A DNA stretch of 64,000 nt from Schmidtea nova. Its lineage: Eukaryota. Below, piece after piece: positions 43,348-64,000 of this stretch; within the stretch, counting starts at the first letter, position 1; each line of letters begins with the position of its first letter. Location of the stretch: contig CM097883.1 in NCBI GenBank assembly GCA_044892505.1, forward strand, positions 310,868,001-310,932,000, in the 5' to 3' direction. The notes below the pieces were generated by a model. That model ran no database searches. It saw nothing but the letters and a program-made list of their open reading frames with translations, and was not told where the DNA came from. Position numbers and translations under genes: made by a program.

Positions 43348-44276
43348 GGTAGCGATTTTGAGGTTGATTCAGATGAAGAAGAAGAAAGTGACACAGACGC
43401 AAGTTACACTGACGAAAGTGAAACAGACGCAAGTGATACGGACGAAAGTGACTTGGACGAAGTTGACACTGACGAAAGTGACACGGACGAAGAAAGTGAA
43501 AATTAGTATCAAAATGTTATCATCAATATAGAATAGGTTTGATAAATTAGGCTAATTGAAACTTCTTTCATGAAAAGATGATTCTTCCTTGAGTTTACTT
43601 TGCATTTATATTAGAATATTAAACGTTTTCTGGGTATTGGTGATATTTGCGCTATTTATATTTGTATTTTGTTTTAATATTACTGCTCTTTATATATGAA
43701 TAATACAAGAACTGCTGATTGTTTTGATATTTTAGACTAAAGGTTTATCAGGATATCGAAAGTGTGTTGGGAATCTATGAAATATCTGTTTTTTAATTAT
43801 ATTATTTTTATTATTATTAATATTATTATTATTGAAATTTTTATTATTTTTGATAATTTTAAACTTTTTTTATCATAAATACTAATACTTTTAAAATCAT
43901 TGAAGTAAAAAACAAAAAATACACTTAACGTCATTAGGATTTGTAATAATTATATATAGATATAACAATTTTCAATTAAATACATGGATGGTCGACTCGA
44001 CTTTTACAATTATTTCAAATATTTTATTTTATGCTTGGCCTCCACAAACCAGTTATCCATTTCGTAAAAGTATTATTAGTTATGAGACTACAGCTGTTAC
44101 CACCTTATAAATGTATTTTATCTGTAACATAAATGTAGTATATATGAAGTGGAATATGAAATCTTTTTTTCTCATGCATCCGTTTCATATGATTAATCGT
44201 ATATCGTTAAAATTTCAAAATCTTTCTTTTCTTTATCTTGCAAAGTACTTACGTAATTGTTTGATCCACGTTTCCG

Positions 44277-44310
<34 letters not shown>

Positions 44311-44313
<3 letters not shown>

Positions 44314-44645
44314 CATAATTATCTTTTTTCACCTTTGATCTTTTTTTATTATTATTATCAATAATTCTCATAATGACTATAGATCAAAATTTTTTTTTAT
44401 AAACAATAACACAATATTTCGGCACAGCCTTTATCAAGTGTGTATTTATTATTATCAATAATTCTCATAATGACTATAGATCAAAATTTTTTTTTATAAA
44501 CAATAACACAATATTTCGGCACAGCCTTTATCAAGTGTGTATTTCTCAAATACACACTTGATAAAGGCTGTGCCGAAATATTGTGTTATTGTTTATAAAA
44601 AAAAATTTTGATCTATAGTCATTATGAGAATTATTGATAATAATA
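44311..44645. other. 335-bp foreign insertion within the (AT)n tract: unique 37 bp + A (100 bp) + A' (97 bp) + CTC + reverse complement of A
   Basis: Unit length 1962 = 1573 + (AT)16 + (AT)11 + 335. 44348-44447 is repeated at 44448-44544 and inverted at 44548-44647. Confidence 0.95.
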
Positions 44646-44982
44646 ATATATATATATATATATATATTTAACGAAATGGAACATGGCTCCGTTTTCAATT
44701 CGTAAAATCGAATACAAGTGGAAGTTCTCATGGAATTTTTATCTTTTTGACAACAACACCGTCGTTTTTCAGTTTTTTCATCTTATACCTTGTAGTTGAT
44801 AATTGAGTTTCACACTTTCAAAGATAACGTAAATCCATCTGCTTTTATTTAATTTTTAATTACTTTTTATTGGTTTAAAGTGTTAAAGTAATCAGAATTC
44901 GACACTATTTATGTACGTTATTATATGAATTTTGACTACTATAAAATAACGAGATAAAATTAAGAGTAAAGTGAAATTTAAA

Positions 44983-45309
44983 ATGTCAACTATACATTGT
45001 AGCATTTGTTTAGAAAATTGTTCGACTTCATTTGCAAAGTTATCTGAATGTCGTCATGAATTCTGTGAGAGTTGTATCAAAGGCTGGATGAAATATTCTT
45101 CTACGTGTCCATTAGATAGATCAGTAACTAAAACGTTAATTATATACAACAATCCTGTAGAAAGAACTATAAAAGATACTATTACTGTTAAACCTAAATC
45201 TTCAAACGACAACGACGACGACGATGACGATAATTATGAGTCACAATTCTTCGAATATGACTTGGCATATTATTTGACGGCTGATGATCATGAATTGGAT
45301 GATGAATAA
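44983..45309 (+). CDS. RING protein, truncated allele, copy 28
   Basis: Same ORF, TAA at codon 109. Confidence 0.6.
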   Translation: MSTIHCSICLENCSTSFAKLSECRHEFCESCIKGWMKYSSTCPLDRSVTKTLIIYNNPVERTIKDTITVKPKSSNDNDDDDDDNYESQFFEYDLAYYLTADDHELDDE

Positions 45310-46240
45310 GGTAGCGATTTTGAGGTTGATTCAGATGAAGAAGAAGAAAGTGACACAGACGCAAGTTACACTGACGAAAGTGAAACAGACGCAAGTGATA
45401 CGGACGAAAGTGACTTGGACGAAGTTGACACTGACGAAAGTGACACGGACGAAGAAAGTGAAAATTAGTATCAAAATGTTATCATCAATATAGAATAGGT
45501 TTGATAAATTAGGCTAATTGAAACTTCTTTCATGAAAAGATGATTCTTCCTTGAGTTTACTTTGCATTTATATTAGAATATTAAACGTTTTCTGGGTATT
45601 GGTGATATTTGCGCTATTTATATTTGTATTTTGTTTTAATATTACTGCTCTTTATATATGAATAATACAAGAACTGCTGATTGTTTTGATATTTTAGACT
45701 AAAGGTTTATCAGGATATCGAAAGTGTGTTGGGAATCTATGAAATATCTGTTTTTTAATTATATTATTTTTATTATTATTAATATTACTATTATTGAAAT
45801 TTTTATTATTTTTGATAATTTTAAACTTTTTTTATCATAAATACTAATTCTTTTAAAATCATTGAAGTAAAAAACAAAAAATACACTTAACGTCATTAGG
45901 ATTTGTAATAATTATATATAGATATAACAATTTTCAATTAAATACATGGATGGTCGACTCGACTTTTACAATTATTTCAAATATTTTATTTTATGCTTGG
46001 CCTCCACAAACCAGTTATCCATTTCGTAAAAGTATTATTAGTTATGAGACTACAGCTGTTACCACCTTATAAATGTATTTTATCTGTAACATAAATGTAG
46101 TATATATGAAGTGGAATATGAAATCTTTTTTTCTCATGCATCCGTTTCATATGATTAATCGTATATCGTTAAAATTTCAAAATCTTTCTTTTCTTTATCT
46201 TGCAAAGTACTTACGTAATTGTTTGATCCACGTTTCCGTC

Positions 46241-57843: not shown

Positions 57844-58170
57844 ATGTCAACTATACATTGTAGCATTTGTTTAGAAAATTGTTCGACTTCATTTGCAAAG
57901 TTATCTGAATGTCGTCATGAATTCTGTGAGAGTTGTATCAAAGGCTGGATGAAATATTCTTCTACGTGTCCATTAGATAGATCAGTAACTAAAACGTTAA
58001 TTATATACAACAATCCTGTAGAAAGAACTATAAAAGATACTATTACTGTTAAACCTAAATCTTCAAACGACAACGACGACGACGATGACGATAATTATGA
58101 GTCACAATTCTTCGAATATGACTTGGCATATTATTTGACGGCTGATGATCATGAATTGGATGATGAATAA
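57844..58170 (+). CDS. RING protein, truncated allele, copy 36
   Basis: Same ORF, TAA at codon 109. Confidence 0.62.
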   Translation: MSTIHCSICLENCSTSFAKLSECRHEFCESCIKGWMKYSSTCPLDRSVTKTLIIYNNPVERTIKDTITVKPKSSNDNDDDDDDNYESQFFEYDLAYYLTADDHELDDE

Positions 58171-59099
58171 GGTAGCGATTTTGAGGTTGATTCAGATGAA
58201 GAAGAAGAAAGTGACACAGACGCAAGTTACACTGACGAAAGTGAAACAGACGCAAGTGATACGGACGAAAGTGACTTGGACGAAGTTGACACTGACGAAA
58301 GTGACACGGACGAAGAAAGTGAAAATTAGTATCAAAATGTTATCATCAATATAGAATAGGTTTGATAAATTAGGCTAATTGAAACTTCTTTCATGAAAAG
58401 ATGATTCTTCCTTGAGTTTACTTTGCATTTATATTAGAATATTAAACGTTTTCTGGGTATTGGTGATATTTGCGCTATTTATATTTGTATTTTGTTTTAA
58501 TATTACTGCTCTTTATATATGAATAATACAAGAACTGCTGATTGTTTTGATATTTTAGACTAAAGGTTTATCAGGATATCGAAAGTGTGTTGGGAATCTA
58601 TGAAATATCTGTTTTTTAATTATATTATTTTTATTATTATTAATATTACTATTATTGAAATTTTTATTATTTTTGATAATTTTAAACTTTTTTTATCATA
58701 AATACTAATTCTTTTAAAATCATTGAAGTAAAAAACAAAAAATACACTTAACGTCATTAGGATTTGTAATAATTATATATAGATATAACAATTTTCAATT
58801 AAATACATGGATGGTCGACTCGACTTTTACAATTATTTCAAATATTTTATTTTATGCTTGGCCTCCACAAACCAGTTATCCATTTCGTAAAAGTATTATT
58901 AGTTATGAGACTACAGCTGTTACCACCTTATAAATGTATTTTATCTGTAACATAAATGTAGTATATATGAAGTGGAATATGAAATCTTTTTTTCTCATGC
59001 ATCCGTTTCATATGATTAATCGTATATCGTTAAAATTTCAAAATCTTTCTTTTCTTTATCTTGCAAAGTACTTACGTAATTGTTTGATCCACGTTTCCG

Positions 59100-59134
<35 letters not shown>

Positions 59135-59446
59135 ATGAAATGGAACATGGCTCCGTTTTCAATTCGTAAAATCGAATACAAGTGGAAGTTCTCATGGAAT
59201 TTTTATCTTTTTGACAACAACACCGTCGTTTTTCAGTTTTTTCATCTTATACCTTGTAGTTGATAATTGAGTTTCACACTTTCAAAGATAACGTAAATCC
59301 ATCTGCTTTTATTTAATTTTTAATTACTTTTTATTGGTTTAAAGTGTTAAAGTAATCAGAATTCGACACTATTTATGTACGTTATTATATGAATTTTGAC
59401 TACTATAAAATAACGAGATAAAATTAAGAGTAAAGTGAAATTTAAA

Positions 59447-59932
59447 ATGTCAACTATACATTGTAGCATTTGTTTAGAAAATTGTTCGACTTCATTTGCA
59501 AAGTTATCTGAATGTCGTCATGAATTCTGTGAGAGTTGTATCAAAGGCTGGATGAAATATTCTTCTACGTGTCCATTAGATAGATCAGTAACTAAAACGT
59601 TAATTATATACAACAATCCTGTAGAAAGAACTATAAAAGATACTATTACTGTTAAACCTAAATCTTCAAACGACAACGACGATGACGATGACGATAATTA
59701 TGAGTCACAATTCTTCGAATATGACTTGGCATATTATTTGACGGCTGATGATCATGAATTGGATGATGAATCAGGTAGCGATTTTGAGGTTGATTCAGAT
59801 GAAGAAGAAGAAAGTGACACAGGCGCAAGTTACACTGACGAAAGTGAAACAGACGCAAGTGATACGGACGAAAGTGACTTGGACGAAGTTGACACTGACG
59901 AAAGTGACACGGACGAAGAAAGTGAAAATTAG
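59447..59932 (+). CDS. RING protein, full-length, copy 37
   Basis: TCA at codon 109; one synonymous GAC>GAT at 59683. Confidence 0.87.
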   Translation: MSTIHCSICLENCSTSFAKLSECRHEFCESCIKGWMKYSSTCPLDRSVTKTLIIYNNPVERTIKDTITVKPKSSNDNDDDDDDNYESQFFEYDLAYYLTADDHELDDESGSDFEVDSDEEEESDTGASYTDESETDASDTDESDLDEVDTDESDTDEESEN

Positions 59933-60702
59933 TATCAAAATGTTATCATCAATATAGAATAGGTTTGATAAATTAGGCTAATTGAAACTTCTTTCATGAA
60001 AAGATGATTCTTCCTTGAGTTTACTTTGCATTTATATTAGAATATTAAACGTTTTCTGGGTATTGGTGATATTTGCGCTATTTATATTTTTATTTTGTTT
60101 TAATATTACTGCTCTTTATATATGAATAATACAAGAACTGCTGATTGTTTTGATATTATAGACTAAAGGTTTATCAGGATATCGAAAGTGTGTTGGGAAT
60201 CTATGAAATATCTGTTTTTTAATTATATTATTTTTATTATTATTAATATTATTATTATTGAAATTTTTATTATTTTTGATAATTTTAAACTTTTTTTATC
60301 ATAAATACTAATACTTTTAAAATCATTGAAGTAAAAAACAAAAAATACACTTAACGTCATTAGGATTTGTAATAATTATATATAGATATAACAATTTTCA
60401 ATTAAATACATGGATGGTCGACTCGACTTTTACAATTATTTCAAATATTTTATTTTATGCTTGGCCTCCACAAACCAGTTATCCATTTCGTAAAAGTATT
60501 ATTAGTTATGAGACTACAGCTGTTACCACCTTATAAATGTATTTTATCTGTAACATAAATGTAGTATATATGAAGTGGAATATGAAATCTTTTTTTCTCA
60601 TGCATCCGTTTCATATGATTAATCGTATATCGTTAAAATTTCAAAATCTTTCTTTTCTTTATCTTGCAAAGTACTTACGTAATTGTTTGATCCACGTTTC
60701 CG

Positions 60703-60753
<51 letters not shown>

Positions 60754-61065
60754 ACGAAATGGAACATGGCTCCGTTTTCAATTCGTAAAATCGAATACAA
60801 GTGGAAGTTCTCATGGAATTTTTATCTTTTTGACAACAACACCGTCGTTTTTCAGTTTTTTCATCTTATACCTTGTAGTTGATAATTGAGTTTCACACTT
60901 TCAAAGATAACGTAAATCCATCTGCTTTTATTTAATTTTTAATTACTTTTTATTGGTTTAAAGTGTTAAAGTAATCAGAATTCGACACTATTTATGTACG
61001 TTATTATATGAATTTTGACTACTATAAAATAACGAGATAAAATTAAGAGTAAAGTGAAATTTAAA

Positions 61066-61392
61066 ATGTCAACTATACATTGTAGCATTTGTTTAGAAAA
61101 TTGTTCGACTTCATTTGCAAAGTTATCTGAATGTCGTCATGAATTCTGTGAGAGTTGTATCAAAGGCTGGATGAAATATTCTTCTACGTGTCCATTAGAT
61201 AGATCAGTAACTAAAACGTTAATTATATACAACAATCCTGTAGAAAGAACTATAAAAGATACTATTACTGTTAAACCTAAATCTTCAAACGACAACGACG
61301 ACGACGATGACGATAATTATGAGTCACAATTCTTCGAATATGACTTGGCATATTATTTGACGGCTGATGATCATGAATTGGATGATGAATAA
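61066..61392 (+). CDS. RING protein, truncated allele, copy 38 (unit interrupted at 61708)
   Basis: TAA at codon 109; GAA>AAA downstream of the stop. Confidence 0.62.
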   Translation: MSTIHCSICLENCSTSFAKLSECRHEFCESCIKGWMKYSSTCPLDRSVTKTLIIYNNPVERTIKDTITVKPKSSNDNDDDDDDNYESQFFEYDLAYYLTADDHELDDE

Positions 61393-61945
61393 GGTAGCGA
61401 TTTTGAGGTTGATTCAGATGAAAAAGAAGAAAGTGACACAGACGCAAGTTACACTGACGAAAGTGAAACAGACGCAAGTGATACGGACGAAAGTGACTTG
61501 GACGAAGTTGACACTGACGAAAGTGACACGGACGAAGAAAGTGAAAATTAGTATCAAAATGTTATCATCAATATAGAATAGGTTTGATAAATTAGGCTAA
61601 TTGAAACTTCTTTCATGAAAAGATGATTCTTCCTTGAGTTTACTTTGCATTTATATTAGAATATTAAACGTTTTCTGGGTATTGGTGATATTTGCGCTAT
61701 TTATATTTAGTAGGCAGACATGAGGAGCCGGGAACAAAGAACTATTACGTAATCGATGACATAACAAAGAACATACCCCCTCCCCTCCCCTTTTTTTCCA
61801 ACCCCCCCTTTTTTTACATACACACAGACGATGAGTCATAAAAATTTTTTTATGGCGTCATCGATGACTCATTTCAAATTTAAATTTTAAATTTAAATTC
61901 CCAAGGGCCAAATAAGGTCAAACCTTCAAACAAGGGTATCATTCG

Positions 61946-62241
61946 AAAGGTCTTGGAGAGGTCTATACAATGGTCATACCCTCGAAGGTGTATGGAGGGT
62001 CCTTAACTTTCAAGGGTCAAAAACCTTCAACCTTTTACAATCCTTATTATATATATATATATATATATATATCAAACAAAAGGTCATTGAGAGGTTAGTA
62101 TGATGGTCATACTTTCGAAGGTGTATGGAGGTTCCTGAACCTTGAAAGGGTCAAAAACCTTCAACCTTTTTTAATTCTTATAATATGTACATCAAACAAA
62201 AGGTAATTGAAGGGTGAGTATAATGGTCATACCATTGAAGA
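61946..62241. repeat. Degenerate tandem repeat, about 2.4 copies of 120-133 bp, containing a (TA)n tract at 62048-62072
   Basis: Cores AAAGGTc..GAGAGGT...ATGGTCATAC recur at 61946, 62079 and 62199; GAAGGTGTATGGAGG and GGGTCAAAAACCTTCAACCTTTT each occur twice. Confidence 0.85.
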
Positions 62242-62257
62242 TTAAATTGTTTTCTTA

Positions 62258-62829
62258 ATGACTCATTGGTATGATTTATTTGGATGACTCATCGGTATGA
62301 CTCATCTACATGACTCATCTACATGATTCATCAGTGGGACTCATCAAGATGACTCATCAGTATGACTCATCAGTATGACTCATCTACATGATTCATCAGT
62401 ATTACTCATCAGTATGACTCATCAGTATGACTCATCAGTATGACTCATCTACATGATTCATCAGTATGACTCATCAGTGTGACTCATTGGGATGACTCAT
62501 CTACATGACTCATCTACATGATTCATCAGTGTGACTCATCAATATGACTCATCAGTATGACTCATCAGTATGACTCATCTACATGATTCATCAGTATGAC
62601 TCATCAGTATGACTAATCTACATGACTCATCAGTATGACTCATCTACATGATTCATCAGTATGACTCATCAGTATGACTCATCAGTATGACTTATCAGTA
62701 TGACTCATCAGCATGACTCATCAGTATGACTCATCAGTGTGACTCATCAGTATGACTCATCAGTATGACTCATCCGTATGACTCATCAGTATGACTCATC
62801 AGTATGACTCATCAGTATGACTCATCAAC
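62258..62829. repeat. 13-bp minisatellite x44 (consensus ATGACTCATCAGT), AP-1/TRE site array
   Basis: 44 units in phase with no indels; 33 carry exact TGACTCA. Confidence 0.97.
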
Positions 62830-63007
62830 AAAAACAAATATTAACAAAGATATAGCAATGCACGTGCAAATTAACAAAGACTTTGCAAAGTGAATGCAAA
62901 GAAACAAAGACTAATTTTTAGGGAATTTTAACATTTTTAAGGTCAAAAATTCAAAAACATAAAAAACTTAAAATTTTTTCAAAAACACAAAGTGAGAATT
63001 AATCAAC

Positions 63008-63021
63008 ATTTATTAATAAAT
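63008..63021. terminator. Palindromic bidirectional poly(A) signal ATTTATTAATAAAT
   Basis: AATAAA on both strands; the minus-strand copy lies ~40 nt after the stop of the 147-aa ORF. Confidence 0.55.
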
Positions 63022-63052
63022 ACACATATATATGACAACAATGTTATTCCAA

Positions 63053-63496
63053 CTATGCAATTCTTGCGCTTTTTATCTTCCAAATTGGAGACATTGATTC
63101 TTTTGGATCGATTTTATATCCTTGGATGGATATATCAATAAACCAATTTTCATTATCCGTATATTCAACTGATTGAAATGCATCATGAAATTCAGTGTTC
63201 CTGTTGTTGATGAATATAGTTTCATTGCAAGATAATTTCTTGTTGATTTTCGTCAACACTTTATTGATTGCAACAACATCTTCTTTATAAATCTGACCAA
63301 TCAAGTTGGAATATTGCGAAGTCGAAAGCTTTACCGGATTTGGGACCTTGAAAGAGATTTCGTTTACCAAGAAAAACATTTGGTAATCGTGAAACATCTG
63401 AACCGGTCGTAAATCAAATTTGTTTTGAGTTGATTTGTTATCGTTCCTAACTGGTTTCATTTTAATTGGACTCAATTTACTGAAAAGATTTTGCAT
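63053..63496 (-). CDS. Hypothetical protein, 147 aa; possibly viral or Polinton-associated, with a beta-rich C-terminus reminiscent of an OB-fold SSB
   Basis: Unique-sequence ORF with AAAATG start context, upstream TATAAATA and CCAAT, downstream AATAAA; no homology search run. Confidence 0.75.
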   Translation of the reverse strand: MQNLFSKLSPIKMKPVRNDNKSTQNKFDLRPVQMFHDYQMFFLVNEISFKVPNPVKLSTSQYSNLIGQIYKEDVVAINKVLTKINKKLSCNETIFINNRNTEFHDAFQSVEYTDNENWFIDISIQGYKIDPKESMSPIWKIKSARIA

Positions 63497-63524
63497 TTTA
63501 TGAACAATTCTATTTTTGTTTTCT

Positions 63525-63561
63525 TATTTATACTCGTCATCGTCTGTGTGCAGCCAATCAG
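63525..63561 (-). promoter_or_regulatory. Candidate promoter of the 147-aa ORF: TATAAATA (63525-63532, minus) and CCAAT box AGCCAATCAG (63552-63561)
   Basis: Canonical TATA starting 36 nt before the ATG; NF-Y-consensus CCAAT just upstream; second CCAAT near 63609-63613 on the minus strand. Confidence 0.55.
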
Positions 63562-63565
63562 ATTC

Positions 63566-63609
63566 TTGCACATGTCTTGTAAATCAATTGCACATGTCTT
63601 GCTAATCAA
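63566..63609. repeat. 22-bp tandem duplication containing CACATG (E-box)
   Basis: TTGCACATGTCTTGTAAATCAA / TTGCACATGTCTTGCTAATCAA. Confidence 0.85.
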
Positions 63610-63810
63610 TTGGCTATGTATTAATAATTGACTTTGTATACATGTTATTATACATCCTTAACTCCATCGATATTATAAAACTTTCTAAAATTATAACAAA
63701 ACGTAGAAAAAAAAAATCATTTAAATAAATCTTGTATTTTTTATATATATATCACAAAGTTAATTTTATCACAATGTTTATTTTCACATATTGATACTGC
63801 GGATACAATC

Positions 63811-63913
63811 TCTGAACAAACTGGTTTTTGGATGATATGTTTTCTGAACAATCTGGTTTTTGGATGATATGTTTTCTGGACAAACTGTTTTGATATGTTT
63901 TCTGCTCAAACTG
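63811..63913. repeat. 32-bp tandem repeat, two near-perfect copies plus degenerate copies
   Basis: TCTGAACAAACTGGTTTTTGGATGATATGTTT at 63811 and 63843, decayed copies at 63875 and 63901. Confidence 0.85.
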
Positions 63914-63934
63914 ATTAAGATTCTATTGGATCTG

Positions 63935-64000
<66 letters not shown>
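63935..64000. repeat. (ATA)n microsatellite, at least 22 units, continues past the window end
   Basis: Directly visible. Confidence 0.98.

Follow-up and report, generated by a model that had tools for sequence, protein, structure and literature searches.

The window, that is, the whole 64,000-nucleotide stretch of DNA that was analysed, contains no Ns, has a GC content of about 27-28% and is occupied from position 1 to position 61708 (plus strand) by a tandem array, or macrosatellite, with units of about 1.6 kb. Thirty-eight complete units follow one another from position 237, and a partial one runs off the left end. Unit lengths are 1597-1635 nt, except for one of 1962 nt; an (AT)n run that spans 24-62 nt accounts for the variation. 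Pairwise identity among the complete units is 99.4-100%, with 12 variable columns. Private substitutions are limited to three in the 38 units, two of which (59683 and 60158) are located in the last two units, possibly reflecting an edge effect on homogenisation or consensus errors.

The array carries an intronless RING-finger (C3HC4-type) ORF with an acidic, Ser/Thr-rich tail, of which an open example of 161 aa is found at 59447-59932 (plus strand). Its zinc-ligand pattern scores above the Pfam cut-off and places it among RING proteins, matching zf-RING_2 (E 1.7e-8, 35 bits; cut-off 27.3) and zf-C3HC4 (E 9.1e-8, 32.3 bits; cut-off 21). Fifteen of the 38 units keep the frame open over 161 codons, and the other 23, including the last unit (61066-61392, plus strand), have an in-frame stop after codon 108. 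This truncated 108-aa allele, the majority form, is mixed with open copies in no fixed order and retains the RING, most of the acidic tail being gone. The tail of the 161-aa protein, 47% D/E, is coded by a degenerate 15-nt x 7 repeat found in the same place in each unit (e.g. 59810-59930), yielding Asp/Glu/Ser/Thr pentapeptides that we take to resemble CK2 sites. The long form also has, at residue 113, a hydrophobic-acidic word presumably resembling a SUMO-interaction motif, which is missing from the truncated form. One TGAGTCA site is located inside the RING ORF of each unit (e.g. 59701), 38 in all.

Among 140 candidates, a single database homolog of the RING ORF was found, P0003, 62% identical over 85 aa and with the same layout. 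Sequence comparison with the PDB returned 31 matches, all generic RING ligases, with RNF4 at rank 1, an equine herpesvirus RING (EHV-1) at rank 3 and a RING2-BMI1 chimera also at the top. These ranks and the SUMO-interaction-like word recall RNF4 and the herpesvirus ICP0-type RING E3 ligases; RING domains match one another generically, and the truncated form loses the word at residue 113. At the level of the array, RS447/USP17 and D4Z4/DUX4 are gene-bearing macrosatellites that likewise have kilobase-scale head-to-tail units with one intronless ORF each, homogenised to more than 99%, and both open and truncated copies. The RING array differs from them in its 1.6-kb unit, in its RING-plus-acidic-tail protein with a single database homolog, and in its AT-rich eukaryotic host (27-28% GC), for which composition and microsatellites point to an invertebrate.

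The array junction and the terminal region

As the sequence-only reading had described, the array ends base-sharp at 61708, its last letters being ATATTT (61703-61708), and the unique DNA from 61709 starts with AGTAGG. A 25-nt anchor ending at 61708 occurs in 39 copies in the window at a spacing of about 1.6 kb; 38 of them lead into the next unit, and the final copy alone leaves the unit sequence for unique DNA. The first 8 to 24 nt past the junction are single copy in the window and absent from its minus strand. Common 14-mers between the array and the 2292-nt tail beyond it are all of low complexity, and the two have no non-trivial sequence in common. An alternative placement, with a 1-nt insertion followed by 3 nt matching the unit, would move the junction 4 nt rightward to 61712/61713.

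The junction is located in the spacer, 157 nt past the stop of the long RING ORF and 976 nt ahead of the next start. Of the ~1600 columns of the unit only 12 are variable, and the boundary at 61708/61709 is located precisely at one of them. The first base after the anchor is G in 24 and T in 14 of the 38 continuing copies, and T is linked in 14 of 14 cases with alleles about 220-270 nt upstream in the previous unit, as an ordinary SNP in a spanning block would be. An earlier prediction that the right flank would start with G fits this local haplotype, if the array resumes, since T is found only after 14 units that share a haplotype to which the last unit does not belong. In the same spacer, 61703-61708 (plus strand) is a candidate left copy of a 6-bp target-site duplication, the second copy of which would be beyond the window.

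The tail has 84 occurrences of AG, 38 of AGT and a single AGTAG, which starts directly at 61709; as the motif was selected post hoc, its position is suggestive only. No inverted copy of the terminus was found within the 2292 nt up to the window end at 64000, which excludes a short non-autonomous element with both of its ends in the window.

Base composition changes at the junction, with a GC content of 46% in the first 52 nt after it versus 27% in the array unit. The putative element terminus AGTAGG and a terminal region with host-transcription-factor-like words span 61709-61900 (plus strand) and are unique in the window. These words comprise two copies of WWCAAAG, bZIP half sites and C-rich boxes, motifs chosen after the fact, with each count reached by 0-3 of 500 shuffles; we assume that they correspond to host-transcription-factor sites. 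An inward-facing promoter-like word at 61821-61845 (plus strand) is common to the region just upstream of the gene described in the next section, where it is located at 63526-63550 (minus strand), the 25-nt arms being 80% complementary. Its 14-nt exact core has two copies in the window, a length of 14 nt being reached by 0 of 500 shuffles and one of 13 nt by 8 of 500. The presence of this word both at the terminus and before the gene links the two as parts of one element.

Further inward, diverged direct repeats of about 133 nt, two full and one partial, occupy 61937-62240 (plus strand; 74% identity over 100 nt), with (AT)12 between the first two. They are followed at 62258-62827 (plus strand) by a tandem array of 43.8 copies of a 13-nt unit with a 65-nt higher-order period, in which 33 of 44 units contain a perfect TGACTCA, which we take to be the AP-1/TRE consensus. 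Two further TGACTCA sites close to the terminus compare with a shuffle mean of 0.16 (P about 0.01). Internally repetitive subterminal DNA spans about 1.1 kb past the junction. A special hairpin origin was unsupported, as 61709-62000 folded as single-stranded DNA gave a z of -0.73, with 42 of 200 shuffles folding equally well.

Short tandem repeats are also present upstream of the gene, with periods of 32/16 nt (63801-63916) and 22 nt (63566-63628), before an (AAT)n microsatellite at 63935-64000 (plus strand). This run has at least 22 copies, starts 2.2 kb inside the tail and runs off the window end; it may mark decay or the end of a fragment, with the copy truncated or non-autonomous. Rfam gave no matches over 58000-64000, the terminus sequence had none in bacterial and archaeal genomes, and nothing matched in the phage collection (tblastn) or the plasmid collection (blastn).

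A predicted OB-fold protein encoded in the tail

The only ORF of at least 100 aa after the junction within the window is an intact, intronless frame of 147 aa at 63053-63496 (minus strand), whose predicted structure is an OB fold of the single-stranded-DNA-binding (SSB) class of T7 gp2.5, Enc34 and African swine fever virus (ASFV) CP312R. A TATA-like box, 36 nt ahead of the start codon of this frame, comes after the promoter-like word, CCAAT-like words are located further upstream, and an AATAAA is found 38 nt past the stop.

At the sequence level, the closest homolog is P0002, with 47% identity, and when a profile built from the two sequences was run against 1.84 billion cluster representatives, 69 matched at E ≤ 1e-3, most of them 110-200 aa long. 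The family alignment was made from 57 of these 69 matches, leaving out 12 (short partial matches and one repetitive 1118-aa protein). Pfam and PHROGs searches on 58 family members gave weak matches to single members only, none of them convincing, and no member among the 58 matched the Pfam families DUF2738, DUF2815, DUF5871 or Pox_I3 at E ≤ 0.01. Pfam suggestions of ICAT, FGF and FAM186 for the 147-aa ORF were rejected, all being under the cut-off. The best match in a PDB sequence search had an E of 0.33, no second SSB-like copy was found in the six frames of the window, and 66 pattern matches in bacterial and archaeal genomes yielded none that was confirmed.

The AlphaFold2 model of the protein has a pLDDT of 91.7. 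In a fold search of 48161 PDB chains, this model ranked DUF2815 first (Z 7.8, rmsd 2.5, 98 aligned residues), followed by ASFV CP312R (Z 7.6, rmsd 3.4, 123 aligned), Enc34 SSB (Z 7.0, rmsd 3.3, 100 aligned) and T7 gp2.5 (Z 6.8, rmsd 2.9, 102 aligned). A second family member, P0012 (pLDDT 89.2), was modelled from 52 sequences excluding the window protein and P0002, and led to the same four PDB proteins at Z 6.2-7.5, the next being at 4.7. Both models show an OB-fold barrel with the gp2.5-type helix insertion (Z 6.2-7.8, rmsd 2.5-4.4, 98-135 aligned), at Z-scores under about 8, a range that the tool itself calls middling. In a second-look search the small OB-fold copper chaperone CusF tied or led (Z 8.2, 76 aligned). 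When the PDB was searched with Foldseek, no match reached E ≤ 1e-3, and Enc34 SSB ranked first.

Within this modelled likeness to T7 gp2.5, Enc34 ORF6, DUF2815, ASFV CP312R and DUF2738-type SSBs, in which the predicted fold and helix insertion are the same, the 147-aa protein differs from the gp2.5, Enc34 and CP312R SSBs in being shorter and basic (pI 9.3), in an identity of 6-12%, and in having no sequence-level match in Pfam, PHROGs or the PDB. It is also without an acidic tail, unlike, as we understand it, T7 gp2.5. The models support the OB fold firmly and make membership in the gp2.5-like class likely; from them we infer binding of single-stranded DNA.

Among predicted viral structures in BFVD, 30 matches were obtained at E ≤ 1e-3, six of them unnamed, and all 24 named ones are giant-virus or iridovirus proteins, namely 23 uncharacterised proteins and one ranavirus P31K; a baculovirus DNA-binding protein appeared at rank 35, and the search from P0012 was similar. 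Identity to these targets is 6-14%, and they tend to be larger proteins, at 176-673 aa for the 30. Neither Polintons nor adintoviruses are named among the best 50 matches in either search, in a database that may hold few such proteins. Atlas neighbours of the 147-aa protein are mostly labelled Nucleocytoviricota, and carry Pox_I3 and DUF2738 among leads with shares of 11-17% and scores of 0.86-0.88, which are weak and below the Atlas recognition threshold. The family member P0004 had no match in the Atlas.

Origin of the DNA beyond the junction

The sequence-only reading had placed the end of a virus-like element immediately after the array, and this view gains support from the AGT-AG start, the ~1.1 kb of repetitive subterminal DNA and the intact viral-type OB-fold gene, a clue which that reading had not used. 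As the 147-aa ORF and P0012 both fold, in their models, like the T7 gp2.5, Enc34 and ASFV CP312R SSBs, the tail would be DNA of a virus-like replicon, and it is quite likely the end of a mobile virus-like element of some kind.

Polintons are described as elements of 13-25 kb with terminal inverted repeats (TIRs) of 100-1500 bp and target-site duplications (TSDs) of 5-8 bp in the available text of 10.1101/2023.08.22.554363. For vertebrate Mavericks, PMC8097293 gives ends of (AGT)2, (AG)3 or (AC)3A, 6-bp TSDs, TIRs of 46-1447 bp and accessory ORF regions flanking the core modules. The tail shares with the Polintons and Mavericks (Polintoviricetes; animal 'adintoviruses') its 5'-AGT start, a long internally repetitive terminal region of a size within the published TIR range, and a small intronless accessory ORF just inside its end. 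Of the suggested Polinton-like AGTAG terminus, the 5'-AG is present, and AGTAGG agrees with (AGT)2 in 5 of 6 positions, but it is identical to no published vertebrate end motif, and that it is none of the three counts against a Polinton.

On balance, we consider that 61709 is probably the first base, at the left end, of a Polinton/Maverick-class element, an endogenous polintovirus that is autonomous or a deleted derivative, inserted in the spacer of the RING macrosatellite. For this locus the term is best read as 'works like, probably is' a Polinton, the 5'-AG alone of the family-defining features being visible here. A far inverted repeat, a second copy of the hexamer and the Polinton core genes (pPolB, retroviral-type integrase, packaging ATPase, Ulp1-like protease, major and minor capsid proteins) would all be located past position 64000, only 2.3 kb of the element falling in the window. 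The chances that the 6-bp duplication is present and that the array resumes appear evenly balanced, and a complete autonomous copy of 15-20 kb is somewhat doubtful. Polinton insertions are common, and such an insertion would itself be ordinary, the element being of a known kind.

Under the Polinton/Maverick reading, a retroviral-type integrase would have made a staggered cut in the spacer, duplicating 61703-61708, and the DNA from 61709 to about 62830 would constitute all or most of a terminal inverted repeat together with the replication origin. Slide-back initiation is known from adenovirus and phi29, and the AG-T-AG repeat could similarly allow a protein-primed polymerase to start and then slide back. 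A terminal-protein domain for protein-primed initiation is attributed to the Polinton polymerase pPolB in the consulted portion of PMC11161782. In strand-displacement replication, the 147-aa protein would quite likely coat the displaced single strand. The TGACTCA block might act as an enhancer that recruits host Fos/Jun-type (bZIP) factors and switches on the genes of the element, a role that we propose only tentatively.

Alternatively, the tandem amplicon could simply have its natural right-hand boundary at the junction, with the RING unit amplified in place beside or inside older virus-derived DNA and with no insertion, no duplication and no resumption of the array. Tandem amplicons normally have sharp edges, since any head-to-tail amplification ends in this way, but on this account it would be a coincidence that the flank opens with the sole AGTAG of the tail and goes on into DNA resembling a terminal repeat. 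The coincidence of the junction with one of 12 variable columns in ~1600 would suit an amplicon edge; however, the variant at that column behaves like an ordinary SNP in its 14/14 linkage with upstream alleles. The position of the break in the spacer, 157 nt past the stop and 976 nt before the start, would make every unit a whole gene cassette, and the small size and lack of introns of the RING gene are traits often seen in viral accessory genes; yet nothing non-trivial is common to unit and tail, the promoter-like word included. That the last two units hold two of the three private substitutions hints at a long-standing edge and speaks against a Polinton. Taken together, we regard a natural edge as unlikely.

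The tail could also come, as an end or a fragment, from a different DNA virus or element that codes for an SSB: a Polinton-like virus (PLV), a MELD virus without integrase, or endogenous DNA of giant-virus/nudivirus-like type. Non-homologous repair or another recombinase would then have joined it to the array. That all 24 named fold matches at E ≤ 1e-3 belong to Nucleocytoviricota, together with most of the Atlas neighbours, points in this direction and weighs against a Polinton, but these matches have an identity of 6-14% and are mostly larger proteins (176-673 aa), set against a compact sequence family of 110-200 aa. The available text of 10.1101/2022.07.28.501842 lists a DUF2738/5871 protein among PLV genes, and that of PMC8502044 reports integrase-less MELD viruses in Hydra and spider datasets. 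The departure of the terminus from the vertebrate Maverick motifs would also be accommodated, although the AGT start of the tail, and Pol II-type TATA, CCAAT-like and AATAAA signals, which fit a nuclear animal element, argue for the contrary. We consider such an origin improbable. An assembly chimera, in which a collapsed or mis-joined array was fused to an unrelated repeat copy, is very improbable indeed: junctions of long repeats are error-prone and a microsatellite is present at the window end, but there are no Ns, the (AT)n length (24-62 nt) and the SNP haplotypes vary non-periodically, as in arrays resolved by long reads, no array-tail homology could have seeded a mis-join, and the join lands on the AGT start.

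Returning to the Polinton/Maverick reading, the proposal that the 147-aa family is both Polinton-borne and able to bind single-stranded DNA is one that we favour slightly. No description of a gp2.5-type Polinton SSB was found in the available text of PMC11161782, PMC10748475, PMC11131425, PMC11296320, 10.1101/2022.07.12.499685, 10.1101/2025.02.07.637071, 10.64898/2026.10.13.758929 and 10.64898/2026.06.19.733378, nor in a Polinton and SSB literature search, among the matches listed; Repbase reports, subscription papers or bioRxiv supplements may describe such features. The idea is not wholly new, since Supplementary Fig. S2 of PMC8502044 has the label 'SSDBP' next to its adintovirus maps for Hydra and Stylophora, the term being absent from the main text in the portion consulted. 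Protein-primed dsDNA viruses have been named as a possible exception to the universal OB-fold SSB in a 2021 paper (PMC8276246, as far as its available text goes). If true, the presence of a gp2.5-type SSB in Polintons would supply a missing piece of their replication and a new marker of element ends. The 147-aa model, for its part, would give a structural identity to a family of 69 matches that has no Pfam name.

The tail also differs from the Polintons in the literature listed in its 33-site TGACTCA array and in the long (AAT)n run inside it, which counts against the Polinton reading, and neither TGACTCA nor 'AP-1 binding site' was found in the Polinton literature, among the matches listed. 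So dense a cluster of AP-1-like sites near the end points to a possible trigger for the activation of such elements. A more elaborate scenario would combine a polintovirus having a 33-site AP-1 enhancer in its terminal repeat as a wounding or stress switch, a previously unnamed, widespread gp2.5-type SSB family serving protein-primed replication, and insertion into a macrosatellite, at least 61 kb long, whose virus-like RING/SUMO-targeted ligase gene may itself have been captured from a virus as an accessory gene that counters silencing. The enhancer, less than 1 kb from the last copy, would now drive the array; as a whole, we see it as a distinctly long shot.

With an insertion in an array homogenised to 99.8%, 38 pre-insertion alleles would be found alongside the element, and the target site, the duplication length and the age could be read exactly with the far end. 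Separately, unit 28 of the array (43664-45625), alone among the 38, contains an insertion of about 337 nt at 44310-44646 inside its (AT)n run, made up of a 99-nt direct repeat and a palindrome of about 201 nt (98.5%), similar to a foldback or MITE-type element targeting TA repeats.
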